49,885 nt of DNA from Minisyncoccota bacterium (GTDB lineage Bacteria; Patescibacteriota; Minisyncoccia; Moranbacterales; GCA-2747515), in contig JAHDCW010000001.1 of NCBI GenBank assembly GCA_020629675.1, forward strand, positions 1-49,885, given 5' to 3'. Position numbers and translations under genes: made by a program. Shown here one piece after another: positions 8,526 through 45,670 of this stretch (within the stretch, counting starts at the first letter, position 1; the number at the start of each line of letters is the position of its first letter). The notes under the pieces are model-generated. The model ran no database searches. It was not told the DNA's origin and saw only the letters and a program-made list of their open reading frames with translations.

Positions 8526-11462
8526 CTATTTTTTGAGAGAGAAACTAAATGTCATATCTCCGATCTGCACCTCACTCTCACTGTAATCCGCATCTGATAT
8601 ATCCCCCTGCCGCACTTCACGCGCGAGTACCTCATGTGCAATGAGATCGCCATACATAGAAAATACATCTTCACCCCCGACATACCCTAGAGTGATCCGA
8701 TCATCGATTTTAAAGTCGGCCTTCTTACGTGCTTGCTGGATCACACGGATAATATCACGCGCTTGCCCTTCACGCATTAACTCTTCGCTGATCTCCGTGT
8801 CGATCACTACTTTTTCTCCAAAGTGGATTTCCTTAACATTAAGCTCTTCCTCTGCAATTACCGCGAGTTCTCTTGGTACTTCTGGAATAGTTGCACTCTG
8901 CAGCGGCTGGCGGACCTTGATCTTAGCCTGTGCTCGCAGTGAGAGCCCCTCCGTGATCGCATCACGGACCTGTTGCATCTGCGCAAGCAACTCCTCATCA
9001 ACCGTACCAGCCTCAGGCCAATCAGTGAGATGTACCGATTCTTCTCCTGTGAGATTAGTATAGAGCTCCTCTGCCAAAAAAGGTGTAAACGGCGCAAAAA
9101 CCTTGGCCATCTGCACGAGGACATAATGCAACGTCCGGTACGCTTGCTCCTTGTCAGTATCACTCTCGCTCTTCCAAAAACGTTTACGTGAGCGGCGCAC
9201 ATACCAGTTTGACGCATCATCGAGAAGCTCCAAAAGTGGTCGCGTCGCAGTCGGGATATCATAACGTTGCATATTCTCATCCACCTCTGCGATCACCTGA
9301 TGAACGCGACTTAAAATCCATTGATCAAGGATATTATCACTGGACGCATAAGGATCAGTGATCTCCGCTGGTGACTCCCAGCCATCTACTGCAGCATACA
9401 TCACAAAAAAGTCATACATATTCCAGATCATACTTAGTTTGCGTTGGACATCCTGTGTGTTTTTATCAAGTAGCACATAATCTTCACCGCTAAGGAGATT
9501 GGAGGAGAGCATCACAAAACGGTACGCATCCGCACTGTACTTATCCATAGCCTCATTGGGATCTGTGTAATTCTGGCGCGATTTGGAGAGCTTGTAACCA
9601 TCATCACCCATAACATTACCTGTGACAATTACATTTTTAAATGAGTTCACACCAAAGAGTGCCACGCTAACGGTATGCATGTAGTAAAACCACGCTCGTA
9701 CCTGCCCCACATACTCGACGATGAAATCACCAGGAAAATTCTTTTCAAATTTTTCTTTGTTTTCAAATGGATAGTGAAACTGTGCAAATGGCATCGACCC
9801 TGACTCAAACCAACAATCCAAGACTTTTTCAACGCGTCTGTATGTAAGCCCATCTTTTACGATCTCAATATCATCCACCCATGGACGGTGATAATCTTCC
9901 AGCCTCTTTCCAGAAAGTTCCTCAAGCTCATCATAAGAACCGACGACAATCTGCTTCTTTTCTCCTGATTCAGCAACCGCCTCCCACACCGGAAAGGGTG
10001 TCGCCCAAAAACGATCTCGCGATAGGTTCCAGTCAGGTGCCTGCTCAATTGTCTTTTGAAATCGCCCTTCTTTGATATGCCCTGGAAACCAATTAATATT
10101 TTTGTTTTCCTCGAGCATCTGATCTTTTTGCCCTTTGACATCCATAAACCAACTAGGATGCGCGCGGTAAATCAGCTTTGTATCACAACGATGGCAGTGT
10201 GGGTAGCTATGCTTAATATGAGATATGCGCCAGATCGGGGCCGTTGGATCTTTCTCAGGATTTTCTTTCCAAAAAGAAATTCTTTCCTCAACTGATTTGT
10301 GAGCATAATCCCCCATCAGAGTCTCCGTACTAAATTGCGCCATGTCCTTGGCGATTTGCTTATTGATATCCCACACATACTGCCCTTTCCATGGACCTTC
10401 GGCGTAGTGACCACTCTCATCGAGTGTATGCACAGCAGGAAAACCTTTCTCCATCGCCAACTCATAATCCTCCTCACCGTAGACAGGCGCTAAATGCACG
10501 ATACCAGTCCCCTCTTCTGTGCCGACATAATCAGCTGCCCACACTCGGTGCGCACCATCACCTCGATCTGTAAAGAGTGGCTCATAAGACTTCCCTACGA
10601 GCTCATCCCCTTTGAATTCTTTGACCACCTCATAATGAAGAGGCTTATTTTTAGCATCTACGAGCGCAGCCTCTAATAGGTCTTTCGCCAAAATAAGCGA
10701 TTGACCTTCTACCAAAACCTCGACGTAATCAATATCCTCATGCACTGCCACTGCTGTATTTGAGAGTAGCGTCCACGGTGTCGTTGTCCAGGCGAGGAGA
10801 TGGCGATCCTCTCCCACCATTTTAAATTTCACATAAACAGATGGATCAGTTACATCCTGATAAGCACCCTTGTCCATGGTTACCTCATTTTTAGAAAGCG
10901 GCGTCGCATCATGCGGACAGTACATAAGCACCTTTTCACCTTCGTAAATTTTTCCTTTGCTATAAAGCTCCTTAAACGCCCACCAAATACTCTCCATGTA
11001 CTCCTTGTCCATGGTTTTGTACGCATTTTTAAAATCCACCCAACGACCGATCCGATCTACCGTATCCTCCCACGCCTCACCAGTAGCTACCATGTTCTCA
11101 CGTGCAGCTGTAATGTACTTCTCAAGACCATACGCAAGCACTTCATCCTTACCATTGAGACCCAACTTTTTTTCTGTAAAAGTCTCTGCCGGTAAACCAT
11201 GACAATCCCATCCCCAACGTCGCTCTACGCGTTTTCCTTTCATCGTCCAGTACCGTGGTACCGCATCTTTTACAGTCGAGCTGATAAGCGTCCCAGCATG
11301 AGGCTGCCCCGTGATAAAAGGAGGACCATCATAAAAAACATATGCATCATTCTCATCGCGCAAGGCAACAGATTTCTCAAATGTTTTGTCTTCTTTCCAC
11401 TTCTTTGCCCAGTCTTTTTCGTAGTCAATTGCTTTTTTTCGCTTCTTTTCGACAAATTTCAT
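8526..11462 (-). CDS. ileS: Isoleucyl-tRNA synthetase
   Basis: 978 aa. PPFITGQPHAGTL (HIGH-type), GWDCHGLPAE (IleRS-typical) and YKLSKSRQ (KMSKS-type). The start overlaps the upstream stop by ATGA (11459-11462). Confidence 0.9.
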   Translation of the reverse strand: MKFVEKKRKKAIDYEKDWAKKWKEDKTFEKSVALRDENDAYVFYDGPPFITGQPHAGTLISSTVKDAVPRYWTMKGKRVERRWGWDCHGLPAETFTEKKLGLNGKDEVLAYGLEKYITAARENMVATGEAWEDTVDRIGRWVDFKNAYKTMDKEYMESIWWAFKELYSKGKIYEGEKVLMYCPHDATPLSKNEVTMDKGAYQDVTDPSVYVKFKMVGEDRHLLAWTTTPWTLLSNTAVAVHEDIDYVEVLVEGQSLILAKDLLEAALVDAKNKPLHYEVVKEFKGDELVGKSYEPLFTDRGDGAHRVWAADYVGTEEGTGIVHLAPVYGEEDYELAMEKGFPAVHTLDESGHYAEGPWKGQYVWDINKQIAKDMAQFSTETLMGDYAHKSVEERISFWKENPEKDPTAPIWRISHIKHSYPHCHRCDTKLIYRAHPSWFMDVKGQKDQMLEENKNINWFPGHIKEGRFQKTIEQAPDWNLSRDRFWATPFPVWEAVAESGEKKQIVVGSYDELEELSGKRLEDYHRPWVDDIEIVKDGLTYRRVEKVLDCWFESGSMPFAQFHYPFENKEKFEKNFPGDFIVEYVGQVRAWFYYMHTVSVALFGVNSFKNVIVTGNVMGDDGYKLSKSRQNYTDPNEAMDKYSADAYRFVMLSSNLLSGEDYVLLDKNTQDVQRKLSMIWNMYDFFVMYAAVDGWESPAEITDPYASSDNILDQWILSRVHQVIAEVDENMQRYDIPTATRPLLELLDDASNWYVRRSRKRFWKSESDTDKEQAYRTLHYVLVQMAKVFAPFTPFLAEELYTNLTGEESVHLTDWPEAGTVDEELLAQMQQVRDAITEGLSLRAQAKIKVRQPLQSATIPEVPRELAVIAEEELNVKEIHFGEKVVIDTEISEELMREGQARDIIRVIQQARKKADFKIDDRITLGYVGGEDVFSMYGDLIAHEVLAREVRQGDISDADYSESEVQIGDMTFSFSLKK

Positions 11463-12007
11463 ATATTTTTTGTTAATTGGTAACTGTAAAGACTTTCATG
11501 ATCCTCAAAAGAATAGTCTTCTATGATCCTATATAGTGGTAACCCCTTATATTCATGGCACATCTCCAGAAAAAGCTCTCTTTTGCCGACAAGGCTTCTC
11601 TTCTCAGCATCCCACCGACTCTCGTCATGATACACCCTAAAATGCTCGAGGTTGTCACAGAGGTCTGCCGCTTTGACATTGACAGAACCCTCACCTGCCG
11701 CAGCAATCTCCTCAAAATATACCCCCGTACCGCTCTCATCACCCCGCATCTCATCCGACATCGTATTCACCTCCACCATTTCAGCCACATAAATGCCAAA
11801 TTCACTTTCGATTTCCTCATACGTGACATCAGCATCCTCGATAAGATCGTGACAGTAACCCGCAATAACGACATCTTCATCACCTACCACGCGATACAGA
11901 ATCTCCGCCACACGCATAGAGTGAAGTGCCACTGGCTTGGTAAGATCGAGATCCTTCGTTTTGTCTGTGAGGAAATAGAGCGCTTGTTGTAATTGCCAAT
12001 GATCCAT
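11459..12007 (-). CDS. HD-domain protein, RelA/SpoT-type (p)ppGpp-hydrolase-like (small alarmone hydrolase-like)
   Basis: HSMRVAEIL...VIAGYCHDLIEDADVTYEEIESEFGIYVAEMVEVNT matches the H...HD..ED...FG pattern of the SpoT hydrolase domain. 182 aa. Confidence 0.65.
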   Translation of the reverse strand: MDHWQLQQALYFLTDKTKDLDLTKPVALHSMRVAEILYRVVGDEDVVIAGYCHDLIEDADVTYEEIESEFGIYVAEMVEVNTMSDEMRGDESGTGVYFEEIAAAGEGSVNVKAADLCDNLEHFRVYHDESRWDAEKRSLVGKRELFLEMCHEYKGLPLYRIIEDYSFEDHESLYSYQLTKNI

Positions 12008-12010: not shown

Positions 12011-12571
12011 CTAAAAAACTTCAACCCAACCGACAGACGGATTCACCCCCTCATCCTGGTCTGCATTCTCCACTGTTCCATACCTACACAAAGAAGCCTC
12101 TTCAACCTCATACAGCATATCACCCTGCTCAGAACTAAATTCTATACTTACAACAGAGCCATCCTGATTATAAGAAACCGTCTGTTCATTTGACTCCGCA
12201 GACTCGGAACCCTCCTCCTCAGACTGTTCTAAATATTTTTTTCTAATCAGGTATTTCCCTCCATCAATATCCATATTCTCACTCACCTCAAAATAGACCT
12301 CCTCTTCACCTGTAACCCAAGACTCGCCAATCAACTTGCCACTGTCAGAATCATAGTTATAATACACGGCAACTTCATCCCCATTATCCATAACCCACAC
12401 TTTTTCACTGGGCTTACCTGAAATTATTTGAGGAGCATTGTAATAGTTCTCCTGATCAGGTGTAATTAACTCAAAAAAGCTTCGCGGTGCATGACCCACC
12501 GCTTCATAAACTTTTTCTATTTCTGCATACTTTCCCACCTCTTCCTTCCTTTCTTTTGCTTGCTCAAACAT
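12011..12571 (-). CDS. Hypothetical acidic protein (first gene of the T-box-controlled operon)
   Basis: I use the ORF's ATG at 12571 (MFEQAKERKEE...). The track's ATG at 12604 sits in the loop of the T-box terminator hairpin. Confidence 0.5.
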   Translation of the reverse strand: MFEQAKERKEEVGKYAEIEKVYEAVGHAPRSFFELITPDQENYYNAPQIISGKPSEKVWVMDNGDEVAVYYNYDSDSGKLIGESWVTGEEEVYFEVSENMDIDGGKYLIRKKYLEQSEEEGSESAESNEQTVSYNQDGSVVSIEFSSEQGDMLYEVEEASLCRYGTVENADQDEGVNPSVGWVEVF

Positions 12572-12773
12572 AAAAATCGTCCGTAAAAATATAAATAAAT
12601 ACATTCTTACGGACGATTTCTAAAGATAAACCTCATTGAAACCGCGGTACCACCGCACTTGAAACAGCTTGTTTCCACTTGATTGTGCGCGTATCGTGCG
12701 CGACCGAGAGGTTCTACTAGCTATGTAAGCGTTCTTCCTCCAGCTCAGGAGTGATATCTCCATCGTTGCTTCT
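12572..12773 (-). promoter_or_regulatory. T-box riboswitch leader, Ile specifier (AUC), truncated Stem I type
   Basis: Minus-strand reading. Stem I (12770-12742) is AGC|AAC|GA|U|GGAG-AUAUCA-CUCC|U|GA|GCU, a K-turn-like GA motif plus a hairpin whose loop shows AUC (12755-12753) followed by A. A GAGG...CCUC helix (12740-12708) has an internal loop carrying GAA and AGUA. A stem GAAAC-AAGCU-GUUUC lies at 12675-12661. The antiterminator (12657-12608) is UGCGG|UGGUACC|GCGGUUUC-17 nt-GAAAUCGU|CCGUA, and the sequence GGUGGUACCGCG is the conserved T-box motif. Confidence 0.8.
12574..12619 (-). terminator. T-box terminator/sequestrator helix (mutually exclusive with the antiterminator)
   Basis: A perfect 13-bp helix pairs AAAUCGUCCGUAA (12619-12607) with UUACGGACGAUUU (12586-12574), with a 20-nt AU-rich loop. 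It is followed by UU and then AUG (12571-12569). Confidence 0.75.
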
Positions 12774-12779
12774 GCTCAC

Positions 12780-12807
12780 AGATTAACATAAATCTTATTT
12801 TTTGCAA
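12780..12807 (-). promoter_or_regulatory. Sigma70-type promoter of the T-box operon
   Basis: TTGCAA (12807-12802), 16-nt spacer, TAATCT (12785-12780). The -35 box is embedded in the U-tract of the preceding terminator. A paralogous copy lies at 13482-13509. Confidence 0.55.
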
Positions 12808-12954: not shown

Positions 12955-13401
12955 TCAGATAGCCTGCAATTTATCACGAAACTTCTCCATGTCTACGCGC
13001 GTAGCTTTTCCTAAAGGCTGAGGCAAATCATCAAGCGAACACCATCGAACCTCTGAAATCTTATCAGGCTCACCGATAGAAACCTCTGACGGATCAACTC
13101 TCAAGATATACAGCAAGCTAATCCAATGTGTGTCGCTCTCACCTTCATTACGAAAAACAGAACTAAAACCCAATTCCCCCTCTACTACAACATTGCGCAC
13201 GCAAATTTCTTCTTGCACCTCGCGTATAATTGCTTGAACTGGAGCCTCAAGCATCTCCAGCTCCCCACCTGGAATCTCCCACAAACCACGCCCATCCCTT
13301 GCTTTTGCGCCACGCTTTAGAAAAAGAAATTTACCTCTACCATCATGACACCATGCTGCCACACAAATACCTGGAAAATCAATGCCAGCCTTCTTACTCA
13401 T
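12955..13401 (-). CDS. NUDIX hydrolase
   Basis: Nudix box GGELEMLEAPVQAIIREVQEEICV (GX5EX7REUXEEXGU). GAGAGGA lies upstream of the ATG. Confidence 0.85.
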   Translation of the reverse strand: MSKKAGIDFPGICVAAWCHDGRGKFLFLKRGAKARDGRGLWEIPGGELEMLEAPVQAIIREVQEEICVRNVVVEGELGFSSVFRNEGESDTHWISLLYILRVDPSEVSIGEPDKISEVRWCSLDDLPQPLGKATRVDMEKFRDKLQAI

Positions 13402-17308: not shown

Positions 17309-20300
17309 CTATGGAGTTACCTCTCCAAATGATCCTCCACTACAATCAGCGTTTGTAGAACACTCACTCACACATGCTCCCGAAGACGCTGAGGAAGCAA
17401 TTACAGGAGCCGCTACACACGCACCGCCTGCGCTACATTTTCGTGCAGTACATACACACGTCACCTTGTGATCCACTGTTGTGCCATCACATGTAATCTG
17501 AGCGATATCACCATTGTTATTGTGCTCAACTTCATAGTCGATACCACTATCAATCAATTCCTCAATTGTGTATGAATCTCCATTAACGTCACAGGTTACG
17601 ACCCCTGCCGGTGGTCGACAGTTGTCCTCAAGTGCTACCCGCAAATTGACCGGGATAGGATTCCCCTCTTGATCAAAGGTTGTTTGCACAGCGCCTTGGA
17701 TTGTCATGCGCTTACATTCACCTCCACAAGCAACTTCATCTGCAGCACATTGAGCCTGTGCAACACAATTTGCAACATTTGTGCCTGATGTGCAAGTCCA
17801 ATTCCAATCAATACCGTTCTGCGTTACTAAGGAAGGGCTTCCAGTTGTACAGAGCTGCGTTGGTTGCGTGTTAATCAGTACACGACCATTATCAGATCCA
17901 CAAACTGCATTTGGAATCGCCTGTGTTTGACATGTAGCGCTACAGCCATCTCCATCAACTGCATTGCCGTCATCGCACTGCTCGCCAAACTCTATAGTTC
18001 CGTTTCCGCATACAGGAATTGCCTGTGTCTGGCATGTAGCACTGCAACCATCGCCATCCTGCGTATTACCATCATCACACTGCTCCCCAGTTTCTACAGT
18101 TCCGTTTCCGCATACAGCACCTGCAGGCTCACTACCACAAGTAGCACTACAGCCGTCACCACTCTGGTTATTACCATCATCGCACTGCTCTCCTGATTCT
18201 ACAGTTCCGTTTCCGCACACTGGACTTACAGGCACTATGCGACATGTACTACTACAACCATCACCATTTTGAGTATTACCATCATCGCACTGCTCTCCTG
18301 ATTCTACAGTTCCGTTTCCGCACACTGGATTATTTCGTTCTACCTGACAAGTTGTACTACAACCATCACCACTTCGTGTATTTCCATCATCACATTGTTC
18401 ACCTGACTCTACAGTGCCATTTCCACAAACTGGAGTTGGGACACTTCGATTGGCTCGACACGAACTGTTTGAACCACCATTTTCACCTTGACATGTCCAT
18501 GTCCATGGACCGCTTCCATTCACTCCTGATGCACCACCTTGCGCACAGAGACCTGATGTTGGTCGCGTATCATATGTACCATTATGGCTTGAGCCGCACT
18601 GACCATCCACTCTTTGCGGTGGGATTGGTGCGCGACAAACACTGTTTGAGCCACCATTTTGTCCATAACAAGTCCAGACGTACTCACCATTACGCTGTGC
18701 GACGGATGAATTACCCCCTCGGCTTGTACATGGATTATTTATATTTGACCCGCATGATCCATTTTCTGGAACAAGTCGCGTGGCACTACAGCTAGCATTA
18801 GAGCCACCATTTTGTCCTTGGCATGTCCACGTGTAAGAATTACTAGACGTTCGCTGACTTGAAAGCGATCCCTCTGAGCAGTTATTACGATTTGGGAAAG
18901 AAGAATAGCTTCCTCTATTTGCTGAACCACAACGTCCATTTACAGGTGCTGGCTTGTTTGCAGAACATTGGACAGTACTTCCACCGTTTTCACCAGTACA
19001 CTGCCATCGCCATTGTGTGCTTGTGTCACTACGATCACTAAAGTTTCCACCTGAGCATCGTGTAGACGATGAAGGAAATGAGCTCGTCGTAGTTCCATTT
19101 GCTGATCCACAACGTCCATTTACAGGAGGAAGAGCTCTATTTACGTAACAACCCCCATCCCAGACACCGTTCGTGCCTTCACACTCCCATGTCCATCGAT
19201 TGCTACTAAAGCGAGCATTCCGTACTGTTCCTCCATTCGTACACTTTTGACTATTTGTAGGCTCACTTGTTACCGTACCTCCTCGATAGCCACAATTACT
19301 TGGCTGTCCGCAAGAAGTTACTGTGTAATTATCGCGGCGAATATTTGTTGGGTTCCATCCACTCCAGTTACACTTTGCACTATGCTGCACGCGCATCTCA
19401 AAGGAGTTATTCCCTTGAGATGAATTACTCAGGTTTGCAGAAAAATTACGACGCGTTGTTCCATTGGCTGTAAAGTTAGCAACTTGACCACCATCAACAT
19501 ACACCCTTGAACAAGCATTCGGCTCATCCCAAGGGTTTCCACAGTTACTATTTGTAACTGTTCCAGACACTGTAGGCTGACAGCGATTATCATTAATGTT
19601 GTAATTTACCTCAGTATATTCACCTGTTGCTGCATCGTGTACAGCACGAAGTGTTACCGCGTCAGCACTTGCAGCCATGCCCATCAAACCAACACCTGTT
19701 ACTGCTGCTAAAGCCCAGACACTTACAGAACCCTTCCCCTTGCGCGCTACTAGAACAAGCAAAGCGATCACAAGAAACAACACTATAAATCCTAATACCA
19801 TACTATTAATTCCACTGTTATTCTCCCCTGCTGATGTACTAACATTGCCCTGATATGCCTCCTTAGCGTCTACATTCGCTCCATAAGCTATTGTCTGTGA
19901 CTGCGCAAGAACCACTCCTTCAGCACCCTCGATTACGACATCAACTATTGGATTTGGACATTTTACTGTCACCGGCATCTGAAGTGTGAAGAATTCACCA
20001 TTATCAAGGCCTTGTCCGACCTGCGTCGTCACTGGATCTGCACAATTTCGACCATTACTTTCAAGTGAAACTGTAGCATTATAGAAAAATGTATTTCGAT
20101 CTTCAGCAACTATATCTCCAATTTCTGCGCGGGCCTCTGTCCCAAAAAAGTCTGCCTGTGAACCAAGTAGAAGTGTAACATTTGCAAGGTCACCTTTAGC
20201 GTATTCATGGCGGTCAATTTGTACATTTTTAATTGTTGCAGACTCACCTTGGATGACTACACGTGCAATCACAGGATTTGATGAGATTTCCTTATTGTCA

Positions 20301-21088
20301 GGATTTACAAGCACAAAATAAACGTCGTACGCCTGAGCTTTATCAATTTCAGGCACAGGAATCTGTACACGCTCTGTGGCACCTGCTGCTATCTCACGCA
20401 TAGAAAAGTCAGCTGTCGCAGCTTGTGGACCTGCAAGTGAACGCTCATAAGCTGTTGCTCGTGGGATATAAGCTTGCGGGCTACCAAGATCATTAAGGAT
20501 TGCGCAATCAAGCACAACAGTCTCGTTTGGTGTCACGTCCACACCTTGAACCAATGTTGATGTCTCGCCAGCTTCACCCACTAAGAGCTGACAGGTTTCC
20601 ACATCAATAAAAAGTGATCCCGGCTCAGCTTCAAGTGTAAATGTCTCTATACTATCTGTTTGAGAGAAAATATATCCATTTGTATTGGCGATGATTCCAC
20701 CTACACCAATCTCACCTTTATAGGATGCTGGTACAGGGTATACCATACTCTTTACGACTAACTCGCCAGGCTTTAGTGAAAAAACCTCATCAAAGAATAG
20801 CGTGTCACTAACACCACCCTCTTTGAAAAGCTGTGCACCATATCTAATGTTTGACTCGACCTTGTCACCATTATTTTCAATTTCCAAAACAACTGTAAGA
20901 TCACGATTATCTCGCGATGCTACGGATGCCTTAGGAATGTTAAGCTCTGATACAATCTCGAAATCCAATGAGACATCCGCCTCTGGACTAAGTGCATCAA
21001 GGGCTTGTTGTTCCGTTTGTGCATGCGCTGCAGGTGTTGTCAAAAACACAAATGCAAAGCATAAAACGAAGTACATTACTCGCGCCAT
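17309..21088 (-). CDS. Large secreted/membrane protein with a central TM hairpin and two families of Cys-rich repeats
   Basis: 1259 aa. Signal peptide MARVMYFVLCFAFVFLTTPAAHA. TM hairpin at aa 430-474. Five [27 protein letters not shown] units (Myxococcus cysteine-rich repeat type). Six units of about 55 aa of the form G.CGS...W.W.C.G.NGG....C. Confidence 0.8.
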   Translation of the reverse strand: MARVMYFVLCFAFVFLTTPAAHAQTEQQALDALSPEADVSLDFEIVSELNIPKASVASRDNRDLTVVLEIENNGDKVESNIRYGAQLFKEGGVSDTLFFDEVFSLKPGELVVKSMVYPVPASYKGEIGVGGIIANTNGYIFSQTDSIETFTLEAEPGSLFIDVETCQLLVGEAGETSTLVQGVDVTPNETVVLDCAILNDLGSPQAYIPRATAYERSLAGPQAATADFSMREIAAGATERVQIPVPEIDKAQAYDVYFVLVNPDNKEISSNPVIARVVIQGESATIKNVQIDRHEYAKGDLANVTLLLGSQADFFGTEARAEIGDIVAEDRNTFFYNATVSLESNGRNCADPVTTQVGQGLDNGEFFTLQMPVTVKCPNPIVDVVIEGAEGVVLAQSQTIAYGANVDAKEAYQGNVSTSAGENNSGINSMVLGFIVLFLVIALLVLVARKGKGSVSVWALAAVTGVGLMGMAASADAVTLRAVHDAATGEYTEVNYNINDNRCQPTVSGTVTNSNCGNPWDEPNACSRVYVDGGQVANFTANGTTRRNFSANLSNSSQGNNSFEMRVQHSAKCNWSGWNPTNIRRDNYTVTSCGQPSNCGYRGGTVTSEPTNSQKCTNGGTVRNARFSSNRWTWECEGTNGVWDGGCYVNRALPPVNGRCGSANGTTTSSFPSSSTRCSGGNFSDRSDTSTQWRWQCTGENGGSTVQCSANKPAPVNGRCGSANRGSYSSFPNRNNCSEGSLSSQRTSSNSYTWTCQGQNGGSNASCSATRLVPENGSCGSNINNPCTSRGGNSSVAQRNGEYVWTCYGQNGGSNSVCRAPIPPQRVDGQCGSSHNGTYDTRPTSGLCAQGGASGVNGSGPWTWTCQGENGGSNSSCRANRSVPTPVCGNGTVESGEQCDDGNTRSGDGCSTTCQVERNNPVCGNGTVESGEQCDDGNTQNGDGCSSTCRIVPVSPVCGNGTVESGEQCDDGNNQSGDGCSATCGSEPAGAVCGNGTVETGEQCDDGNTQDGDGCSATCQTQAIPVCGNGTIEFGEQCDDGNAVDGDGCSATCQTQAIPNAVCGSDNGRVLINTQPTQLCTTGSPSLVTQNGIDWNWTCTSGTNVANCVAQAQCAADEVACGGECKRMTIQGAVQTTFDQEGNPIPVNLRVALEDNCRPPAGVVTCDVNGDSYTIEELIDSGIDYEVEHNNNGDIAQITCDGTTVDHKVTCVCTARKCSAGGACVAAPVIASSASSGACVSECSTNADCSGGSFGEVTP
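17925..18432 (-). repeat. Five tandem ~102-105-nt coding repeats (Myxococcus-type cysteine-rich repeat)
   Basis: VCGNGTVE(S/T)GEQCDDGN..(S/N/D)GDGCS.TC occurs five times. Stretches of about 50 nt are identical between units, for example 18172-18222 and 18278-18328. Confidence 0.8.
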
Positions 21089-32029: not shown

Positions 32030-35000
32030 TTAGATCCTACACATCATATCAACCCCTGTCTCAGCAAGGACACACTCACTTTTGATGAGCCCAAAGTCTA
32101 CCTTTGTTGTGTCGTCTCCACACTCTTCGATGTGAATCTGTGTGCGATTATCTGGATTTTTTGACGATCCTGAATCAAAGGAGATGATCATATCCTCGAT
32201 GTCTTTGTCATCGATCACAACCGTGTAGTACCCCACACCTATTGTGCGCAGCTCATATTTACCACCATCACTTGTTGTGTCACGGTCAATCGTATTACCC
32301 TCTCGATCTTTAAGCTTTACTTCAATACCAGACAGCGGCAAGTCTATATCAGGATCATACTTACCATTACAGTTCATATCCTCAAAGATCCGATTACCAA
32401 TTGTCGCCTCATCACCTTCGGCACACTGACCGAACTGGTTGTAGGCAAAATCATTATCATAAGATGCCGGATCTTCCTCTGTAATTGTCGTTTCTGTGAG
32501 CGCGTCAAGAATCTGATCAACATCAAATGACTGACTTAACTCTGCAGGAATATCCGTCTCATCGATGACGATGCGGTAGTCACCATATGGGAGGTTATCG
32601 TAATAGTAATTTCCATCTTCATCAGTCGTGGTCGTAAACAACACCTCGCCACCATTTTCTGTCTGGAAATAAATATTGATATCGACATTTGCAAGCGGCT
32701 CTTCACTGCTATCAAAATCATCATCACCATCCACATCAATCCAGAGAGTTCCTGCTACGACACCGTTACCAGTTATTACTTCTGCATCATCCTCATCTAT
32801 TGGTGCGGTTGGGTTTTCATAGTCAGTACCGTCCTCATCCGTAGGTGTGCCCGTTGTCTCTGCTATATTTACATGAATCAATCCAATTGGCACATCGATC
32901 TCCACAGTACACACGACCACCTCTTCGGGCGCTACAGGACCTGCAAGTGCTGGGCATGTGGCGGCATCAACCGTGAAATCATCTGTCTCATCCGTTGGTG
33001 TGCCATTGTCATCATTTACGACGATGTCCTTGAGGTGCGACTCACCTGTATTGGTAACCGTGTAGGTAAAGATGACTGGCTCTCCAATGTGCACATATCC
33101 ATCTCCGTCCGGTGCATCCCCAGCTGTTTTGACGATGTTGACACTTGATGATAGCGTGTCCACCTCAGCCTCATCTTCATCTGTTGGCATATGACCATCT
33201 GGCGTCTCGCCGGTAACACGCGCGTAGTTGATGAAATCTTCTGGCGCTGATTCAAGTGTGCACGTGTACGTTTCGCTAGCACCAGCAGCAAGGCTCGCAA
33301 ACGTGTTGTCACAATTTGGCGCATTTGGGTCCGACACAACCACATCTGTAAGCTCTACAGATCCAGTATTTCTGACAATAATCTGAAATGTCACAGCAGA
33401 TCCTTCTGGTAGCACAACCATCTCACCGTACTCACCAGTAGCTGGATCTAGCACTTGCTTATCAATCTCTACCCCATACGTTTGATGCTCAGCATCATCA
33501 TCATCTTCAGGCTCATTATCCTCCGGTGTCATACCAGTTACAGCAATGATATTGGTTAACGTCTGATCAGTAGCTATAGTTGTACATGTATATGTTTCAC
33601 TGCCGCCAACTGGAATTACCGCAAATGTGTTATCACAATCAGGAACAAGCGGATCAACAACATTGACGTTGGTAAGATCAACTGTACCAGTATTGGTAAC
33701 AACGATTTGGTACGTCACTGTATCCCCTACGGGAATCTCCACATCTTCCAAAAAATCACCAGTATCAGGATCTTGGACACGCTTATCTATATCAAGACTA
33801 TACACGTCAGCCTCTGCATCATCATCATCTTCTGGAGTATTACCATCCGGTGTTTCACCAGTTACGTCTGCGACATTGGTCAGAGCATCTTCTAATGGGT
33901 TGAGTGTACATGTGTAAGTCTCACTTGCACCTGCAGCTAGAGTCGCAATGACAGTATCGCAATTAGGAACTTGCGGATCAGAAACTGTTACATTTGTGAG
34001 CTCGACAGAACCAGTATTTGTCACGATAATCTGAAATGTCACTTCATCACCATCAGGAATTTCGGTATATTCCTCAAATTGTCCCGTAACAGGATTCAAC
34101 ACCTGCTTATCGATATTAATACCATATGTCTGATGTTCAGCATCATCATCGTCTTCCGGCTCATTAGACCCGGGCGTTTCACCAGTTGCTGTAACTGTAT
34201 TAGTTACCGTTTGATCTGTTGCTGTTGTTGTACATGTATAGATCTCTTGAGCACCTGCTGCGAGAGTTGCAAATGTATTATCACACGCCGGAACAGTCGG
34301 ATCGACTACCTCAACATTTGAGAGATCAATACTACCTGTATTGACGACTCTAATCTGATACGTTACCGTGTCCCCCACAGGAATCTCAGTATCTTCGACG
34401 AAATCCCCAGTTATTGGATCTTGCACTAACTTCTCAATAGCTAAACCGTACACACCTGCTTCCGCGTCGTCATCATCTGTCGGCATATTACCCTCTGGTG
34501 TTTCACCTGTTGCGCGCGCTATGTTTACAATTGCATCATCAAGCGGATTAAGCGTACACGTATATGTCTCTGTTGCACCCGCTGCGAGAGTTGCAAACGT
34601 GTTATCACAATTAGGAGCATTTGGATCAGTCACCTCCACATTTGCAAGGTCTACGGAGCCAGTATTTGTTACGGCGATTTGGAACATCACCTCTTCACCA
34701 GTCGGGATCTCCGTGTAATCAAGATAAGAATCAGTACCAGCATCGTATACTAATTTTTCTATTTCGATACCATATGTCTGGTGCTCAGCATCATCATCAT
34801 CTTCCGGTTCGTTAGCATTTGGTGTTTCACCAGTTGCAGTTGCTGTATTTACAACTGTTTGATCTGTTGCCGTTGTCGTACACGTGTACGTTTCACTAGC
34901 TCCAGCTGTGATCGTCGCAAACGTATTATCACAATCAGGAACAAGCGGATCAGTCACATTTACATTTGTGAGATCTACAGTACCAGTATTGGTAACTATA

Positions 35001-38000
35001 ATCTGATACGTCACTGTATCTCCCACCGGTATTTCTGTGAACTCTACAAAATCTCCCGTATTCGGGTCCTGGACACGCTTATCGACAGTCAAGCCATAAA
35101 CATCTGCCTCCGCATCATCATCATCGTTTGGATTGTTACCTCCTGGCGTCTCACCTGTTACGCTAGCAGTATTTACAAGGTTATCACCGAGGGAGACCAT
35201 TTCACACGTATAGGTTTCACTTGCACCTGCTGCGAGAGTTGCAAATGTATTGTCACAATCAGGCACTTGCGCATCTGTTACTGTGACATTTGTGAGATCC
35301 ACGGAACCTATATTTGTCACAACAATCTGATACTGAGCTGTATCGCCCACTGGCACCTCCGCATAATCTACATATGTGTCTGTTGCTGGGTCATAGACGA
35401 GTTTTTGGATTTCAACACCGTATGTCTGCGCCTCTGCATCATCATCATCGTCTGGCGTGTTACCGTTTGGTGTCTCACCCTCTGCTTCGGCTGTGTTGGT
35501 AAATGGTACCAGCACCTCAGCATAGGTACATGTATATGTTACAGAGTCATCAAAAGGAAGTGATGCAATAGTCGTATTACACGCCGGAACAGTCGGATCA
35601 GTCACGCTAACATTTGTCAGATCTACAGTTCCTGTGTTGCGCACTGTGATCTGATATGTTGCTGGATCACCCACTGGGATCTCTGCCACCTCTACAAAGT
35701 TGCCGGTTGCAGGATCTTGAATCAACTTTTCAATTTCAATACCAAACGTCTCCACATTTGCATCATCACTATCATCAATCTCAGAACCAGACGCTGTCGT
35801 ACCAGTCGAAGTTGCCACATTGGTGTAAGCCCCATCAATTGCAACATCACACGTGGTAACGATTACCTCCCCAGGTTCAAATGGGTCGGCTCCGGATACA
35901 CCCAGTGCAGTCGTGTCCTGACTACATGAGGGAAATGTATCATCATCAAGCTCTAATTGCTCAAACGCTGTTGAACCAGTATTTGTAATAGTGAAACGAA
36001 AAGTTGCATCGTCATCAAGTGCAATCTCAGCCGCAGCTACATCAAGCCACTGATCAAGTAGCGGGTCATAAACTTCCTTGAGGATGCTAATGTCAAAGAG
36101 AGGTGCAGATGCATCATCATCGTCGTCAACTGGGTCCTGACCATCAGTAGGATCTCCTGTTACAGATGCGGTGTTAGGATTCACATCAGCTGTAATCGTC
36201 CCAGTACACGTGTATGTATAGATCTGCCCAGGATCGAGCACGCCATCGTTCGCACCATTTTGATCAGGTAGCGTGAGATCACAGTTTGGCAAATCAGGAT
36301 CCGTTACTGCGACATTATCAAGAGCTACCTCACCTGTGTTTGTCACCACCATCTGATAGGTAAGCTCTGTGCCAGGTGCCTGCTCCGGGATGGTATCCAC
36401 AAAATCTCCCGTGTCGGGATCTTGCACACGCTTATCGATATTTATGCTAACAGGAGGTTGATAGAAACCAAAGTCTACTGTGAGATTATCATTGGCATCA
36501 GCTGCATTTCTACTTATACCATTATCAACATCAATACTGTCAATTTCTTCTTGTAGAGGCTCCGTACCGATATCTAGAGTCAAAATACCAGACTCGTAGT
36601 CACCTGCACCCGTTGGAATAGCATCATGATTTTCTGTTTCATTATCATCATCATTTGGGTCTGTGCTTGGGTTAACTGATCCAACATATGTATAAAGCGC
36701 ACCACCCGGCAGGAAATTTGATGCCAGCACACGCACTCTATAGTCACCAGTAAATGCAATGTTCTGAAAAACATACCGACCATTACCATCTGTTGTTGCT
36801 GTATCTATAACTGCACCATCTGATTCGCGAACGAGCTCCAGGTCAACCCCAGCCAGCTTTGTATCCCCTGTATCAAATAGATCATTTCTATTTGCATCAA
36901 TAAACACGAGATCCCCAATCGATGCTGTGTACACCTCAGTGTACACCGGGTTTGATCGCGCTGGTAACGACAATATGCTTGGAGGCACTTTTACACTGTA
37001 GTCATTTGCATAGAAATCGCCAGGAGTATTAGCATCTGTGCTGATTGTCACTCGAAACGATTGCTTGCCAGCACCGGGCGTTGCCGGAACAGTTGACGCA
37101 TCTCCTGCAAATAAGTTTTCTCCATAAATTCGAAATGAAGTTGCATCAGATAATCCCGTTGGACATCCTGGTGATCCAAGTGCTGGTGCTCCATATGGAT
37201 CTAGAGCTGTGTCATCTGTGCACCACAAAGTACTTCCTCCTGGGATAGCATTAGTTGGATCTGATGAATCTGCTGTAATCGTAGCAGGATCAGCATTTGT
37301 GAGATAGAGCGCATATGGCTGATTACTAGGATCTGCCGTAATCGAAAGAATCTCAAATCCACCAGTAAAATCAGATGGCGTAGTACGCGTATCGCCATTA
37401 AATGGCAACGTATCAATTAAGTCATACCAATCTACATCATCATTAGCAATATTAGCAAATACAAGCTCATATGTAATGTCTTCATTAATGAATATGAGCG
37501 TGTCCTCTACGCGCTTAACTACTGCAAATGCTCCTAGCTGAATAATTACTATACCATCTGTGTCACTTCTCGCTGATTCTATTGCGGAATCCTCAGGGTC
37601 AGAAATGATCGCGGTATTTTCAATATTTGTACCATTCGCAGCATCAATTGGCGTTGTCGTAACAAAACTAAGCGTTGGCAAATTTGTACGATCGAGCTCA
37701 ACAACTCCCAGAACCCACTTTAGACCCAAAACATCAGACCCAAGCACTGGCTCTGTCGTCGTCCAATGACTTGCATCATCTCGGTCACATGGCGCCACAA
37801 CACAATACTCCACTAAATGAGTCGCTCCATTATCATCAATAAAGCTAGCAGGCATCGCAGAACCGGTTACGTAGGTCAGCGTTGAGTCAAGCACATCTAC
37901 TATTTGCACATCCTGAGCAGGATCACCCGGCTCACCGCTAATGGATGTAACAGTTGGCCTCAGATTCCATGTAACATCAGTTCCTCCTAAATGATTAGCT

Positions 38001-40270
38001 CCAGAACCAGGCTGCGCCTCAAGAGCCTCCTTTTCTATACGTACCTGAAGATTTGTCGCAAATAGACGGTCACCATTACCCACCCCAGAATGCGTCTCTG
38101 GATTATAATTTCGCGCACCCTGTCGGAGAATATCATCCTTATCAATAAAGCTATAGTAGGCTTGATTTGCTATCTCTGTACCCAAGGCAAGCCCCGGTTG
38201 AGCCTCATGCATCACATAAGCTTGAAAATATTTTCCAGCTGGCAAAATAGACCGTTCTTTCCACGGCAAATTTGGGTCGATATCAGGATGTTCGATTCTG
38301 ACACGAAATTTAGTAATATCATCCACAGCTACTCCAGCTGGCAATACCGCACTCAAATCGCCGAACTCAGGCACTTGAATCCAGTCGTCACCATCACTAT
38401 TACCATCACCATTAATATCAAGCGCATCACTGTCGTCACATGTACCATTTCTTTGAGCAGTCCAGCCAGCTGTATTAGCACCTCCCCAATTCCCGGGAGC
38501 CCCCCCATCAACTCCAGCAGCAACTTCCAAGACAACATTTGCGGAAGTTATATTTGAGTAAGTTTGGTCAACATTTGAACCTCCCACTCGTATGTAATGC
38601 ATGCGATTTGTCTGACTACTTGGCGAAAGGAAAAAGGTAGTCGGATCAATCTTATCACACATATACGCCTCGCGATTCGTGTATACGGATGTGTTATTCA
38701 AAGACACTAAGGTAGACCACTGACTTCCCGCCATAGCTTGACCATTACCAGCTCCGACACCAGTTGCATTTGTTGGGGCCGTCCAATACCTTGCATCTGG
38801 ATCATCATAGACCTCCCCAGGAACTCCCTTTCTATAATACTTACTCCATCCCGTGCCCCCACCGATTGCTGTAAATTCTAGCGTGTTTTTGCGATCACCT
38901 GTATTTTGATCATCCTCAGTTGGCTCTGTACCACTACCATAATTTGAAAGTCCATCCGTGTCAGTCGGATCAAAATTGGTTAGCGTGTCCGATGTTGGAT
39001 ATTCACCATCATCATCAGTTCCCTCTATACCATCAGGTCCAAGTTCAATCTGTTCAATCGGAATCCAAATTTCAAGCCAGCCAGAACTAAACCATGTTTG
39101 ATCCGCGGCAATAGCACCACCTGTCCAGTGAGTGTCCGGGAACTCATCTGGTCCCCAATCAGCGTTTGTGATTGTGACATCAATGTTAGTACCTGTTTGT
39201 GTGCAAGAATAATTACCGGAGTCACTTGTCGATCTGTACTGCCCCCATATATCCGCTTTACCCAATGGCACAGCACCATAATCAAGACTGTTTTGTCCTG
39301 CGTATCCACATCCGCCATGTGCACCCCAGTCATAAAGAAGTGATCCCGCTGGAAAACCGGAAATATCATCCGTAAAGGTGACAACATTTGGATCAATTAC
39401 TCCATTACCATTAGCATCATCTCCAGGATCGATGACACCATCTCCATTTTCATCATAATCTCCAAGAATAGATAATCCACGAGGATCCCCGCCGCCCGCA
39501 ACAATACCTGTCCTAATGCCGTAAACGACACCTATCTGATCCTCTCCTGTCGTATTTCGTGGATCAGATGCTGGTAGTACACGCGGTGTATTACGAGATG
39601 CACCATGTTTCCAAAGATCATAACGCGGCGCAGAAGCATTAGTGATAGGATCAGAAAAGAAAGGATCGGTTTCAACAACGATATCATCATTATCGTCAAG
39701 GTCACAGACCGTGTACTTAATGCCAAAGCGCGTCCCATTTGGAACCGACCCACTTGTTTTAACCTCAGCATTAATAAAGGCAGTGGTACCGTTAAGTACG
39801 GAACCAATACTACATGTCAATGTTTGATTGTCTGGCCCTGTATTACCTGAACAACCAGGAGGTAACTGCACAAACTGCACTCCCTCATGAGCGGGATTAC
39901 CCGTAGGATTGCCTGCAGCATCAAACTCCACCAACTCAGCTTTAAGAGTTAGGTTATTAGCATCCTCCCCATTGACGTTGTATTCAAGTTTAAACGTAGA
40001 GACATCATTTGACCGTGCATAATGCCCAAATCCTAAAAATCCATCCTCCTGCGCAGGCGAGCCATCCTCACCAGGATCCACCAAACCATCCCCATCGTAG
40101 TCCACAAAGGGTGCAGAACCAGAACTTACAATTGTCATATTTGAATCAACGGTTGGCGCAGCGTAAGCGATGTATGGGACATGTTGAAGCACAAAAGCAA
40201 AACACAAAAGCGACAACAAAAAAGATTTTGCTTTTTTTCGCACTTTTTGGGGGAAACAAAAAGAATGCAT
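32030..40270 (-). CDS. Giant (2746-aa) secreted adhesin-like protein with DUF11/TIGR01451-type repeats and SdrD-B-like domains
   Basis: Signal peptide LLSLLCFAFVLQHVPYIAYA. About 12 units of the form Y.I.VTNTG.V.L.NV.V.D...P.C....A.L..G.S.TYTC. Three GNR(V/I)F.D.N..G-type SdrD-B units. LAETG lies 13 aa from the C-terminus. Confidence 0.85.
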   Translation of the reverse strand: MHSFCFPQKVRKKAKSFLLSLLCFAFVLQHVPYIAYAAPTVDSNMTIVSSGSAPFVDYDGDGLVDPGEDGSPAQEDGFLGFGHYARSNDVSTFKLEYNVNGEDANNLTLKAELVEFDAAGNPTGNPAHEGVQFVQLPPGCSGNTGPDNQTLTCSIGSVLNGTTAFINAEVKTSGSVPNGTRFGIKYTVCDLDDNDDIVVETDPFFSDPITNASAPRYDLWKHGASRNTPRVLPASDPRNTTGEDQIGVVYGIRTGIVAGGGDPRGLSILGDYDENGDGVIDPGDDANGNGVIDPNVVTFTDDISGFPAGSLLYDWGAHGGCGYAGQNSLDYGAVPLGKADIWGQYRSTSDSGNYSCTQTGTNIDVTITNADWGPDEFPDTHWTGGAIAADQTWFSSGWLEIWIPIEQIELGPDGIEGTDDDGEYPTSDTLTNFDPTDTDGLSNYGSGTEPTEDDQNTGDRKNTLEFTAIGGGTGWSKYYRKGVPGEVYDDPDARYWTAPTNATGVGAGNGQAMAGSQWSTLVSLNNTSVYTNREAYMCDKIDPTTFFLSPSSQTNRMHYIRVGGSNVDQTYSNITSANVVLEVAAGVDGGAPGNWGGANTAGWTAQRNGTCDDSDALDINGDGNSDGDDWIQVPEFGDLSAVLPAGVAVDDITKFRVRIEHPDIDPNLPWKERSILPAGKYFQAYVMHEAQPGLALGTEIANQAYYSFIDKDDILRQGARNYNPETHSGVGNGDRLFATNLQVRIEKEALEAQPGSGANHLGGTDVTWNLRPTVTSISGEPGDPAQDVQIVDVLDSTLTYVTGSAMPASFIDDNGATHLVEYCVVAPCDRDDASHWTTTEPVLGSDVLGLKWVLGVVELDRTNLPTLSFVTTTPIDAANGTNIENTAIISDPEDSAIESARSDTDGIVIIQLGAFAVVKRVEDTLIFINEDITYELVFANIANDDVDWYDLIDTLPFNGDTRTTPSDFTGGFEILSITADPSNQPYALYLTNADPATITADSSDPTNAIPGGSTLWCTDDTALDPYGAPALGSPGCPTGLSDATSFRIYGENLFAGDASTVPATPGAGKQSFRVTISTDANTPGDFYANDYSVKVPPSILSLPARSNPVYTEVYTASIGDLVFIDANRNDLFDTGDTKLAGVDLELVRESDGAVIDTATTDGNGRYVFQNIAFTGDYRVRVLASNFLPGGALYTYVGSVNPSTDPNDDDNETENHDAIPTGAGDYESGILTLDIGTEPLQEEIDSIDVDNGISRNAADANDNLTVDFGFYQPPVSINIDKRVQDPDTGDFVDTIPEQAPGTELTYQMVVTNTGEVALDNVAVTDPDLPNCDLTLPDQNGANDGVLDPGQIYTYTCTGTITADVNPNTASVTGDPTDGQDPVDDDDDASAPLFDISILKEVYDPLLDQWLDVAAAEIALDDDATFRFTITNTGSTAFEQLELDDDTFPSCSQDTTALGVSGADPFEPGEVIVTTCDVAIDGAYTNVATSTGTTASGSEIDDSDDANVETFGIEIEKLIQDPATGNFVEVAEIPVGDPATYQITVRNTGTVDLTNVSVTDPTVPACNTTIASLPFDDSVTYTCTYAEVLVPFTNTAEAEGETPNGNTPDDDDDAEAQTYGVEIQKLVYDPATDTYVDYAEVPVGDTAQYQIVVTNIGSVDLTNVTVTDAQVPDCDNTFATLAAGASETYTCEMVSLGDNLVNTASVTGETPGGNNPNDDDDAEADVYGLTVDKRVQDPNTGDFVEFTEIPVGDTVTYQIIVTNTGTVDLTNVNVTDPLVPDCDNTFATITAGASETYTCTTTATDQTVVNTATATGETPNANEPEDDDDAEHQTYGIEIEKLVYDAGTDSYLDYTEIPTGEEVMFQIAVTNTGSVDLANVEVTDPNAPNCDNTFATLAAGATETYTCTLNPLDDAIVNIARATGETPEGNMPTDDDDAEAGVYGLAIEKLVQDPITGDFVEDTEIPVGDTVTYQIRVVNTGSIDLSNVEVVDPTVPACDNTFATLAAGAQEIYTCTTTATDQTVTNTVTATGETPGSNEPEDDDDAEHQTYGINIDKQVLNPVTGQFEEYTEIPDGDEVTFQIIVTNTGSVELTNVTVSDPQVPNCDTVIATLAAGASETYTCTLNPLEDALTNVADVTGETPDGNTPEDDDDAEADVYSLDIDKRVQDPDTGDFLEDVEIPVGDTVTYQIVVTNTGTVDLTNVNVVDPLVPDCDNTFAVIPVGGSETYTCTTIATDQTLTNIIAVTGMTPEDNEPEDDDDAEHQTYGVEIDKQVLDPATGEYGEMVVLPEGSAVTFQIIVRNTGSVELTDVVVSDPNAPNCDNTFASLAAGASETYTCTLESAPEDFINYARVTGETPDGHMPTDEDEAEVDTLSSSVNIVKTAGDAPDGDGYVHIGEPVIFTYTVTNTGESHLKDIVVNDDNGTPTDETDDFTVDAATCPALAGPVAPEEVVVCTVEIDVPIGLIHVNIAETTGTPTDEDGTDYENPTAPIDEDDAEVITGNGVVAGTLWIDVDGDDDFDSSEEPLANVDINIYFQTENGGEVLFTTTTDEDGNYYYDNLPYGDYRIVIDETDIPAELSQSFDVDQILDALTETTITEEDPASYDNDFAYNQFGQCAEGDEATIGNRIFEDMNCNGKYDPDIDLPLSGIEVKLKDREGNTIDRDTTSDGGKYELRTIGVGYYTVVIDDKDIEDMIISFDSGSSKNPDNRTQIHIEECGDDTTKVDFGLIKSECVLAETGVDMMCRI
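33155..35746 (-). repeat. Eight strictly in-phase 324-nt (108-codon) coding units alternating between two subtypes (648-nt higher-order period)
   Basis: Unit starts (F/Y codon) are at 35746, 35422 (inferred from the 324-nt spacing; this boundary was not located directly in the sequence), 35098, 34774, 34450, 34126, 33802 and 33478. Odd units end ...EPEDDDDAE(H/A)QT and carry TTTATDQTV. Even units end ...DDDDAEA.V and carry TLNPL.DA. Confidence 0.85.
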
Positions 40271-44537: not shown

Positions 44538-45608
44538 TTAGAGCATTAGCGCCTCAGGTGCTTCAAAGGCTATAGCCTCATCTTGATCGATAAGCATTGC
44601 CTTTACCATGATACGGCGCAGAGCTGTACCTAGCGGCCAACACGTCGTAAGTGTGAGAACTTCGTCATTGGAACTCGCGAAAATATCAGGCTCATCAGGC
44701 TCCACCTCACGCTGCACATCTACCGCATAGGTATAGCGCACCTCCTGACCTTTTGCAGTACGTGCTGCTACGATAATTTTGTCGCCAGGCACGACATCGA
44801 TAAGGTCTTTAAAGATCGTATTAAAGTTACCTCCCGCCCACGCATAATTACTGCTATGACCAGCAATATATGAGTTTCCGATTTCACCTGGCATCACTGT
44901 CCCCTGCCCAGGATAGAGAATTACTCCTCGCTCGAGATCTTTTTGAATCTGACTTTCGTCAACTGTATCAGATAAAATGACAGGTGCATCGACACCAATC
45001 TTATCAATCATGATTTTATAGGTGAGTCGCGCATCACCAGATGCAGTCGGATCATATCCATCACGTACCTCTTTTTCATCATCGTAACCATCGCCATCTG
45101 TATCTGCAACCAGAGGGTGTGTCCCAAATAAAAATTCCTCTTTATTTGTGAGGCCGTCACCATCTAAATCACCATCAGTCGTCGTCTCTGCACCAAGCTG
45201 ATACTCTTGCTCCCAGTTGTCTGAGAGACCATTGTTATTTGCGTCGAGCCGACCTTTACCAGTTGGTGAGTACCCATTATTTACCTCAGTACCATCTAGA
45301 TATCCGTCGCCATCTGTATCTGCCACTATCGGATGTGTGTTGTGAATATACTCCTCTATCAGACTAAGTCCATCCTCATCTGCGTCCACCTGCGCATCCT
45401 CCTCTGATGAAACACTAATCTGATAACGATCAAGCCAAAAAGGCGAAATTCCATGATGTTTTTCATCAAGCATCTCCATTAATTCTTGCGATGTTTTTTC
45501 ACGCGGTAAAATTGTATCTACAAGTAAACCAAAACGACCTGTAAAAATCACAAAAGCCACAAAAAACACGACCACAAAAACGATAACGATAGAAAAAAAT
45601 GATTTCAT
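44538..45608 (-). CDS. Sortase (transpeptidase) with N-terminal TM and thrombospondin-type-3-like Ca-binding repeats
   Basis: Catalytic motifs YIAGHSS (His), VLTLTTCWP (TLxTC Cys) and ALRRIMV (Arg). Four DxDxDG-type repeats (DADEDGLSLIEE, DTDGDGYLDGTE, DLDGDGLTNKEE, DTDGDGYDDEKE). I prefer ATG 45608 (MKSFFSIVIVFVVVFF). Confidence 0.8.
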   Translation of the reverse strand: MKSFFSIVIVFVVVFFVAFVIFTGRFGLLVDTILPREKTSQELMEMLDEKHHGISPFWLDRYQISVSSEEDAQVDADEDGLSLIEEYIHNTHPIVADTDGDGYLDGTEVNNGYSPTGKGRLDANNNGLSDNWEQEYQLGAETTTDGDLDGDGLTNKEEFLFGTHPLVADTDGDGYDDEKEVRDGYDPTASGDARLTYKIMIDKIGVDAPVILSDTVDESQIQKDLERGVILYPGQGTVMPGEIGNSYIAGHSSNYAWAGGNFNTIFKDLIDVVPGDKIIVAARTAKGQEVRYTYAVDVQREVEPDEPDIFASSNDEVLTLTTCWPLGTALRRIMVKAMLIDQDEAIAFEAPEALML

Positions 45609-45668: not shown

Positions 45669-45670
45669 CA

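Follow-up and report, generated by a model that had tools for sequence, protein, structure and literature searches.

An isoleucine-specific T-box with an ultrashort Stem I and a candidate terminator ahead of an ileS operon in a Patescibacteria genome

Introduction

Which mechanism does a T-box riboswitch use when a Stem I of minimal size is followed by a hairpin and a run of uridines? According to a 2020 review, an ultrashort Stem I goes with translational control, and a long Stem I carrying a platform goes with transcriptional control (PMC7583486). The question is raised by a leader on the minus strand of contig JAHDCW010000001.1 (assembly GCA_020629675.1, Minisyncoccota bacterium), of which we analysed a stretch of 49,885 nucleotides, hereafter the window. 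An initial annotation, made from the letters of the sequence, had described this leader as an Ile-specific T-box with a truncated Stem I in what looked like a CPR-type genome and had called its mechanism ambiguous; it proposed that the identity be judged by a match to the Rfam T-box model, by covariation of the helices including the terminator and by conservation of the AUC and UGGU motifs among related leaders. Here we describe the architecture of the leader, its operon and its relatives, and weigh the ways in which it may act.

Results

Assignment to the T-box family

A search with the Rfam model RF00230 gave a significant match of 45.2 bits, which was aligned end to end (model positions 1 to 219 over 12775-12606) and lies far outside what chance would give, with an E-value of 7e-9 when the region was searched and of 7.7e-7 when the search covered the whole window, where it was the sole match with E<=0.01. 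The score nevertheless lies under the gathering score of 93, because 4 nt stand where the model has 74 positions of distal Stem I; at gathering thresholds Rfam returned nothing in the window, the T-box match appearing in E-value mode only. The same alignment, with its 4 nt in place of 74 Stem I model positions, bears out the missing distal platform that the initial annotation had pointed to. The relatives described below scored 35-46 bits against this model, so annotation based on the cutoff of 93 would not report these leaders.

The leader has the 7-nt bulge with UGGN between helices A1 and A2, a more stable and mutually exclusive hairpin that reuses the antiterminator 3' strands, and a specifier that agrees with the amino acid of the regulated gene (AUC and ileS). 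The long Stem I with specifier internal loop, AG bulge and distal loop was not found in it. Its identity as a T-box thus rests on the covariance-model match and on the covarying helices A1, A2, Stem I, Stem II, Stem IIA and Stem III, and on these comparative sequence grounds we take the leader, which stands in a CPR genome, to be confirmed as a true Ile T-box with an ultrashort Stem I.

Architecture of the leader

A complete Ile T-box occupies 12770-12572 of the minus strand, with the following parts.

12742-12770, minus strand: Stem I, ultrashort, with a base helix of 3 bp (AGC/GCU) and a K-turn-like GA motif
12761-12758 with 12751-12748, minus strand: upper helix of Stem I, GGAG/CUCC, 4 bp, closed by the hexaloop AUAUCA at 12757-12752
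12753-12755, minus strand: AUC specifier (Ile) in loop positions 3-5, with A as the next base
12707-12741, minus strand: Stem II, with lower helix GGAGG/CCUCU and upper helix GCU/AGC
12688-12706, minus strand: Stem IIA (CG...CG) and candidate IIB pseudoknot, loop CGCG 12702-12699 with CGCG 12691-12688
12676-12687, minus strand: purine-rich linker with a conserved AAG (12680-12678)
12661-12675, minus strand: Stem III, GAAACA/UGUUUC with loop AGC, seen in the predicted fold
12654-12643, minus strand: T-box core GGUGGUACCGCG
12608-12657, minus strand: antiterminator, composed of A1, a 7-nt bulge and A2, predicted at -13.2 kcal/mol
12572-12621, minus strand: terminator hairpin of 22 bp with a 6-nt loop, -27.4 kcal/mol (RNAfold)

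Every element that the initial annotation had named was recovered base for base at its minus-strand coordinates; its list had omitted Stem II with the S-turn, Stem IIA with its candidate IIB pairing, and Stem III; these stems are all present. The K-turn-like motif of Stem I consists of a bulge AAC and of G12764-A12763 opposite G12746-A12745. The upper helix above it is paired in 99.3% of cases among 75 relatives, with compensatory changes in 4/4 pairs. Stem II contains an S-turn (loop E-like) formed by AAGAA opposite AGUAGAA, whose AGAA and A-UA-A show no variation among the aligned leaders, and its lower and upper helices are 97% and 92% paired in the family, with covariation in 8/8 pairs.

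The two outer pairs of Stem IIA are kept in 75/75 leaders, and the window has only 2 canonical IIA pairs. The candidate IIB pseudoknot gave a modest signal in both counts applied to it: with a fixed register 55% of cells were paired, against 44% when shuffled and 19-32% when slid, and the longest run was 3.7 against 3.1 in shuffles. In the linker that follows, A95 and G100 do not vary across the alignment; the ileS T-box of M. tuberculosis has a GAG linker at a similar position (PMC12647780), its presumed counterpart. Stem III is 90.7% paired in the family, with compensatory changes in 9/9 pairs.

The antiterminator agrees in each part with the earlier description: helix A1 is UGCGG (12657-12653) with CCGUA (12612-12608), the bulge UGGUACC lies at 12652-12646, and helix A2 is GCGGUUUC (12645-12638) with GAAAUCGU (12620-12613). 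Across the family, pairing reaches 99.4% in A1 and 93.2% in A2, and covariation was seen in 10/11 pairs. The alternative helix had been given as a perfect 13-bp pairing of AAAUCGUCCGUAA (12619-12607) with UUACGGACGAUUU (12586-12574), behind which come UU and AUG (12571-12569). This pairing and what follows it hold, but the full helix is longer, at 22 bp. The 3' strands of A2 and A1 double as its 5' arm, and its tail reads U5 (12576-12572), AUG and U3. The hairpin was also flagged by a simple terminator scan, and the fold z-score is -4.4.

The operon downstream of the leader

The leader is followed on the same strand by an operon of three genes, an orphan ORF, an HD protein resembling RelA/SpoT hydrolases, and ileS.

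12011-12571, minus strand: gene 1, acidic orphan ORF of 186 aa, Asp/Glu-rich, with its AUG 2 nt past the hairpin
11459-12007, minus strand: gene 2, HD-domain protein of 182 aa, whose start overlaps the stop of the first ORF
8526-11462, minus strand: gene 3, ileS, isoleucyl-tRNA synthetase of 978 aa, with a 4-nt overlap with the HD-gene stop

The overlapping stop and start codons favour co-transcription of the three genes. The product of gene 3 matched the equivalog TIGR00392 with 802.9 bits (cutoff 621) along with the Pfam families tRNA-synt_1, Anticodon_1 and DUF5915. Gene 2 matched PF13328 (HD_4) at 9.9e-11 and TIGR00691 at 50 bits, the latter in the hydrolase region only, and had no homologue in the 160 related loci. 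A putative alarmone ((p)ppGpp) hydrolase inside a T-box operon would be induced by uncharged tRNA-Ile. The orphan ORF matched no Pfam or NCBIfam family, found itself alone among 5.8 billion clustered proteins, and gave no tblastn homologue in the 160 related loci. Its start at 12571 is the assignment of the ORF list and gene caller, and the 186-aa protein stands in the database; an alternative in-frame GTG start lies at 12538, behind a AAGGAAGGAAGAG stretch.

Host and gene neighbourhood

The suspicion of a CPR-type genome was borne out, the nearest IleRS genes being found in Ca. Pacebacteria and Saccharibacteria MAGs, and we consider the assignment of the window to CPR/Patescibacteria sound. 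Among GTDB genomes the closest IleRS belongs to a Ca. Pacebacteria MAG (locus L001, 75% identity), followed by dozens of Saccharibacteria MAGs at about 60%; a search for closer relatives in metagenomes through IleRS gave 62% identity at best, below the 75% of L001. All ORFs of at least 200 aa lie on the minus strand over nearly 47 kb of the window. A Shine-Dalgarno-like (SD-like) motif is absent from almost all genes of the window, which have AU-rich sequence upstream instead; in contrast to the nearly complete lack of it here, such a motif stands at 67/69 Saccharibacteria ileS genes.

The features around the T-box operon that we took note of are as follows.

12955-13401, minus strand: NUDIX gene upstream of the T-box, with its own hairpin and U7 terminator at 12841-12812
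32030-40270, 17309-21088, 45723-48131, 44538-45671 and 40401-42047, minus strand: surface, DUF4215, sortase and T4SS-coupling group

A NUDIX homologue of 46% identity is encoded in the Pacebacteria locus (L001:2516-2941), where it is placed between the T-box and ileS. The NUDIX gene is thus upstream of the T-box in the window and downstream of it in L001, which indicates that the leader has been reshuffled relative to its cargo genes. Between 12805 and 12775 no convincing sigma-70-like promoter was found.

Elsewhere in the window a giant surface protein of 2746 aa is encoded on the minus strand, with 10 DUF7507 repeats and DUF11, SdrD and SpaA domains, and DUF4215 occurs in two further proteins. 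The window also encodes a sortase, a type IV secretion (T4SS) coupling protein with a C-terminal zinc finger, and TGT.

Relatives, covariation and specificity

Related leaders were sought in 160 IleRS loci from genomes and metagenomes by a regular expression first and then by two covariance models, R1 for the decoding domain (Stem I, Stem II and IIA) and R2 for the discriminator domain (Stem III and antiterminator). With the window included, R1 matched 144/161 sources, R2 matched 140/161 and both matched in 138; each model gave a single match per source, the two matches being adjacent, upstream of ileS and on the same strand as ileS. The window scored 63.5 bits with R1 and 49.0 bits with R2, mid-range for the family. 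The architecture was therefore found upstream of ileS in about 140 of the 160 Patescibacteria loci, mostly from Saccharibacteria and including a human oral TM7 MAG (L074).

Covariation in these leaders, which the initial annotation had proposed to test, is strong in every helix, with 93.2% and 93.8% of cells paired in the genome-derived R1 and R2 alignments and both-sided changes in 35/38 pairs. The covariation score was reached by 0/500 shuffles, and slid registers fell to 31-58% paired.

The specifier is equally well conserved. AUC stands at the same loop position in 127/144 leaders, the Stem I loop having the form NNAUC(N1-2) in 124 heptaloops and 3 hexaloops, that of the window among them. 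Within these 127 leaders loop position 2 is U in 109 and the base after AUC is A in 121, a layout resembling that of an anticodon loop. The bulge contains UGGU in 133/140 leaders and reads UGGUACC in full in 120/140, and the UGGU implies a discriminator A73. Bacterial tRNA-Ile carries A73 as its discriminator. A scan of the window and of the first 60 related loci turned up no tRNA-Ile gene, and A73 is hence an assumption here. The Ile specificity that had been proposed for the leader is upheld by AUC in 127/144 leaders, by UGGU in 133/140 and by a bona fide ileS as third gene of the operon.

Expression platform and proposed mechanism

Two types of expression platform were seen in the family. 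The canonical one is that of a small subclass with six leaders, namely those of the window, L001 (Pacebacteria), L046 (Moraniibacteriota), L079, L149 and L156. The terminator helix, for which a covariation check had been called for, has the same arrangement in the latter five, with compensatory changes among them. A U tract follows immediately 3' of the helix in all six, and in L149 and L156 there is no ATG within the 40 nt shown from the start of the U tract, so that the helix is read as a terminator and not as a sequestrator of the start site. The Saccharibacteria leaders that lie directly upstream of ileS and have a U tract show an SD-like motif past the tract in 67/69 cases, usually 6-10 nt from the start codon; its place beyond the U tract indicates a transcriptional design. 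The predicted energies of the window leader, -27.4 kcal/mol for the terminator against -13.2 kcal/mol for the antiterminator, may be read beside the typical values of TBDB, which are -19.5 and -7.4.

These results bear on two points of the initial annotation. The role it had offered for the helix as a sequestrator of the GGA-containing region ahead of the AUG is unlikely, the genome being SD-poor. The mechanism is also less ambiguous than it had been taken to be, as the U tracts in all six leaders, the cases of L149 and L156 and the SD positions favour termination.

With the architecture, the covariation, the conservation of specifier and bulge, the gene context and the energy asymmetry as observed, we consider it probable that the leader is the Ile-specific T-box of the three-gene operon and works by tRNA-Ile-dependent transcription antitermination. 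In the scheme of tRNA binding, termination and a possible translational effect that we infer from the sequence, the anticodon GAU of tRNA-Ile would pair with AUC in the terminal loop of the minimal Stem I, and the S-turn of Stem II and IIA/B would presumably buttress this codon-anticodon contact, as happens in the ultrashort-Stem-I ileS T-boxes of Actinobacteria. The 3'-terminal ACCA of an uncharged tRNA would pair with UGGU in the 7-nt bulge and stabilise the weak antiterminator (-13 kcal/mol), and while this is held RNA polymerase would read into the operon. Without uncharged tRNA the 22-bp hairpin (-27 kcal/mol) would capture A2 and A1 by their 3' strands and, together with the U-rich tract behind it, would stop transcription at about 12572-12566. 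A secondary, translational layer is conceivable on refolded transcripts: with the AUG 2 nt past the hairpin and initiation mostly SD-less, the hairpin may also hinder ribosome loading.

Against this account count the Rfam score under the gathering value, the assumed status of A73 and the lack of a convincing sigma-70-like promoter between 12805 and 12775. The U tract is moreover broken by the AUG (U5-AUG-U3) and is partly pairable with an upstream A run, and transcriptional T-boxes generally need the distal platform of Stem I, missing here, for fast capture of the tRNA (PMC7583486). In its favour, the genome has a second clear terminator, the hairpin with U7 at 12841-12812.

Alternative readings

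The alternative to be weighed most seriously is a purely translational T-box of the actinobacterial kind, in which the 22-bp helix would occlude the ribosome landing region, or a weak GGA SD, and no termination would take place. The AUG is indeed only 2 nt past the helix and stands right behind the U tract in L001 and L079 as well, the antiterminator state would leave 36 AU-rich nt single-stranded upstream of the AUG, and the known ultrashort-Stem-I T-boxes are all described as translational (PMC7583486). Yet an SD-poor genome offers no SD to sequester, the helix has a U tract behind it in all six leaders, of which L149 and L156 show no ATG in the 40 nt examined, the Saccharibacteria relatives carry their SD outside the hairpin and past the U tract, and hairpin and U tract together satisfy the terminator scan. 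We therefore judge an exclusively translational action unlikely.

Two further readings deserve less weight. The leader could be a decaying, non-functional remnant, with the operon constitutive or internally promoted and ileS free of tRNA control, and it is true that the unrelated orphan ORF and HD gene have been inserted between leader and ileS and are absent there from the relatives, that Stem IIA is down to 2 canonical pairs in the window, and that the Rfam score is under threshold. Decay is nonetheless very improbable for a leader that has kept all its helices intact along with the AUC specifier, S-turn and bulge, whose 63.5 and 49 bits lie mid-range for the family, whose fold z-score is -4.4, and which precedes genes whose overlapping stops and starts favour co-transcription. 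Another specificity might be read from the hexaloop AUAUCA, where the overlapping triplets UAU (Tyr), AUA (Ile) and UCA (Ser) are also legible; but only AUC is fixed over the 127 leaders while its flanks vary (NNAUCNN), the downstream gene is always ileS, and the UGGU bulge suits the A73 of bacterial tRNA-Ile, which leaves this reading hardly any probability at all. Antitermination controlled by tRNA-Ile remains our preferred account of the leader.

Platforms in Saccharibacteria and other relatives

The Saccharibacteria leaders are built differently: the loop and 3' strand of Stem III are paired with the segment just ahead of the U tract. The base helix of this terminator encloses an intact A1/bulge/A2 hairpin and so excludes Stem III and not the antiterminator. 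Examples are as follows, and about 60 further loci share the arrangement.

L016:2892-2984: enclosing terminator
L021:2355-2449: enclosing terminator
L040:2899-2990: enclosing terminator
L074:2892-2983: enclosing terminator

A third covariance model, R3, recovered the enclosing arrangement in 66/80 genome loci, and it was absent from the window. The enclosing base helix is 96.7% paired with double changes in 8/9 pairs, against 9/9 in the competing Stem III, and permuting the partner strands weakened the enclosing duplex from -14.1 to -8.4 kcal/mol. With a charged tRNA, Stem III has been seen by smFRET to undock from the antisequestrator (PMC12647780), an observation that makes a switch by "Stem III protection" plausible. 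No description of the enclosing topology was found in the T-box literature examined. In a few leaders (L134:1618-1830 and L113:2294-2480) Stem III is lacking and a separate hairpin with a U tract comes directly after the 3' strand of A1; such hairpins, with little or no overlap with that strand, may represent a third platform variant.

Discussion

Comparison with known T-boxes

An actinobacterial ileS T-box with an ultrashort Stem I was reportedly described by Sherwood, Grundy and Henkin in 2015 (Mycobacterium smegmatis / M. tuberculosis), and structures of this actinobacterial ultrashort-Stem-I T-box are said to have been presented by Battaglia and co-workers in 2019.

The likeness to this actinobacterial class that the initial annotation had noticed is apt (PMC7583486, PMC12647780). 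The two have in common a short K-turn Stem I, the specifier in its terminal loop and the lack of a platform for the tRNA elbow (PMC10651847, PMC12647780, PMC7583486), as well as the S-turn Stem II, IIA (with IIB as a candidate pairing here), a purine linker, Stem III and the helix-bulge-helix with UGGN. Ile specificity and linkage to ileS are shared too, the likeness being one of architecture as described, and the core measures about 165 nt here and 166 nt in the M. tuberculosis core construct (PMC12647780). They differ in the expression platform, which is a hairpin with a U tract here and an SD sequestrator in the actinobacterial ileS T-box; ahead of the AUG in the window no SD was found that a sequestrator helix could mask. 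The host, an SD-poor CPR/Patescibacteria genome, and the place of ileS as third gene of the operon also set the leader apart from the actinobacterial class. Its specifier loop has 6 nt, whereas most CPR relatives have 7.

From the canonical transcriptional T-boxes (RF00230; Bacillus subtilis tyrS and glyQS) the leader keeps GGUGGUACCGCG in the antiterminator bulge, the order of Stem II, IIA/B and Stem III, and the stabler terminator, which shares the 3' strands of A2 and A1 with the antiterminator and has a U tract behind it. Unlike them it has lost about 74 Stem I model positions, which comprise the specifier internal loop, the AG bulge and the distal interdigitated T-loop platform, and it presents the specifier in a hairpin loop. 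Membership in the T-box family is itself ordinary; what is unusual is the combination of a platform-less Stem I with a terminator, and the CPR host. In TBDB the model of the ultrashort type is applied to Actinobacteria only, and full-text searches found no papers linking T-boxes with Saccharibacteria, Patescibacteria, CPR or TM7.

Significance for the T-box family and for CPR bacteria

The CPR/Patescibacteria may thus harbour a large and apparently unannotated clade of platform-less Ile T-boxes acting by intrinsic termination, a generalisation that we put forward tentatively, with its chances somewhat short of even. The leader appears, with its roughly 140 relatives, to form a natural exception to the platform requirement. 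If that is true, they contradict the rule that platform-less T-boxes are translational owing to the kinetic deadline of termination, and the helix would have a second role in the SD-less genome of the window, where it would gate ribosome loading too, so that control would be dual. The competition between terminator and Stem III in Saccharibacteria would, if real, be a new switching topology. An ultrashort Stem I joined to a terminator in a widespread natural class makes the idea that Stem I length is tied to mechanism testable (PMC7583486). Confirmation would mean either that the groove of Stem II and IIA/B is fast enough alone or that pausing by the CPR RNA polymerase gives the time. For the CPR bacteria, genome-reduced and host-dependent, the finding shows that a tRNA-sensing riboswitch has been retained on ileS, a rare regulatory handle.
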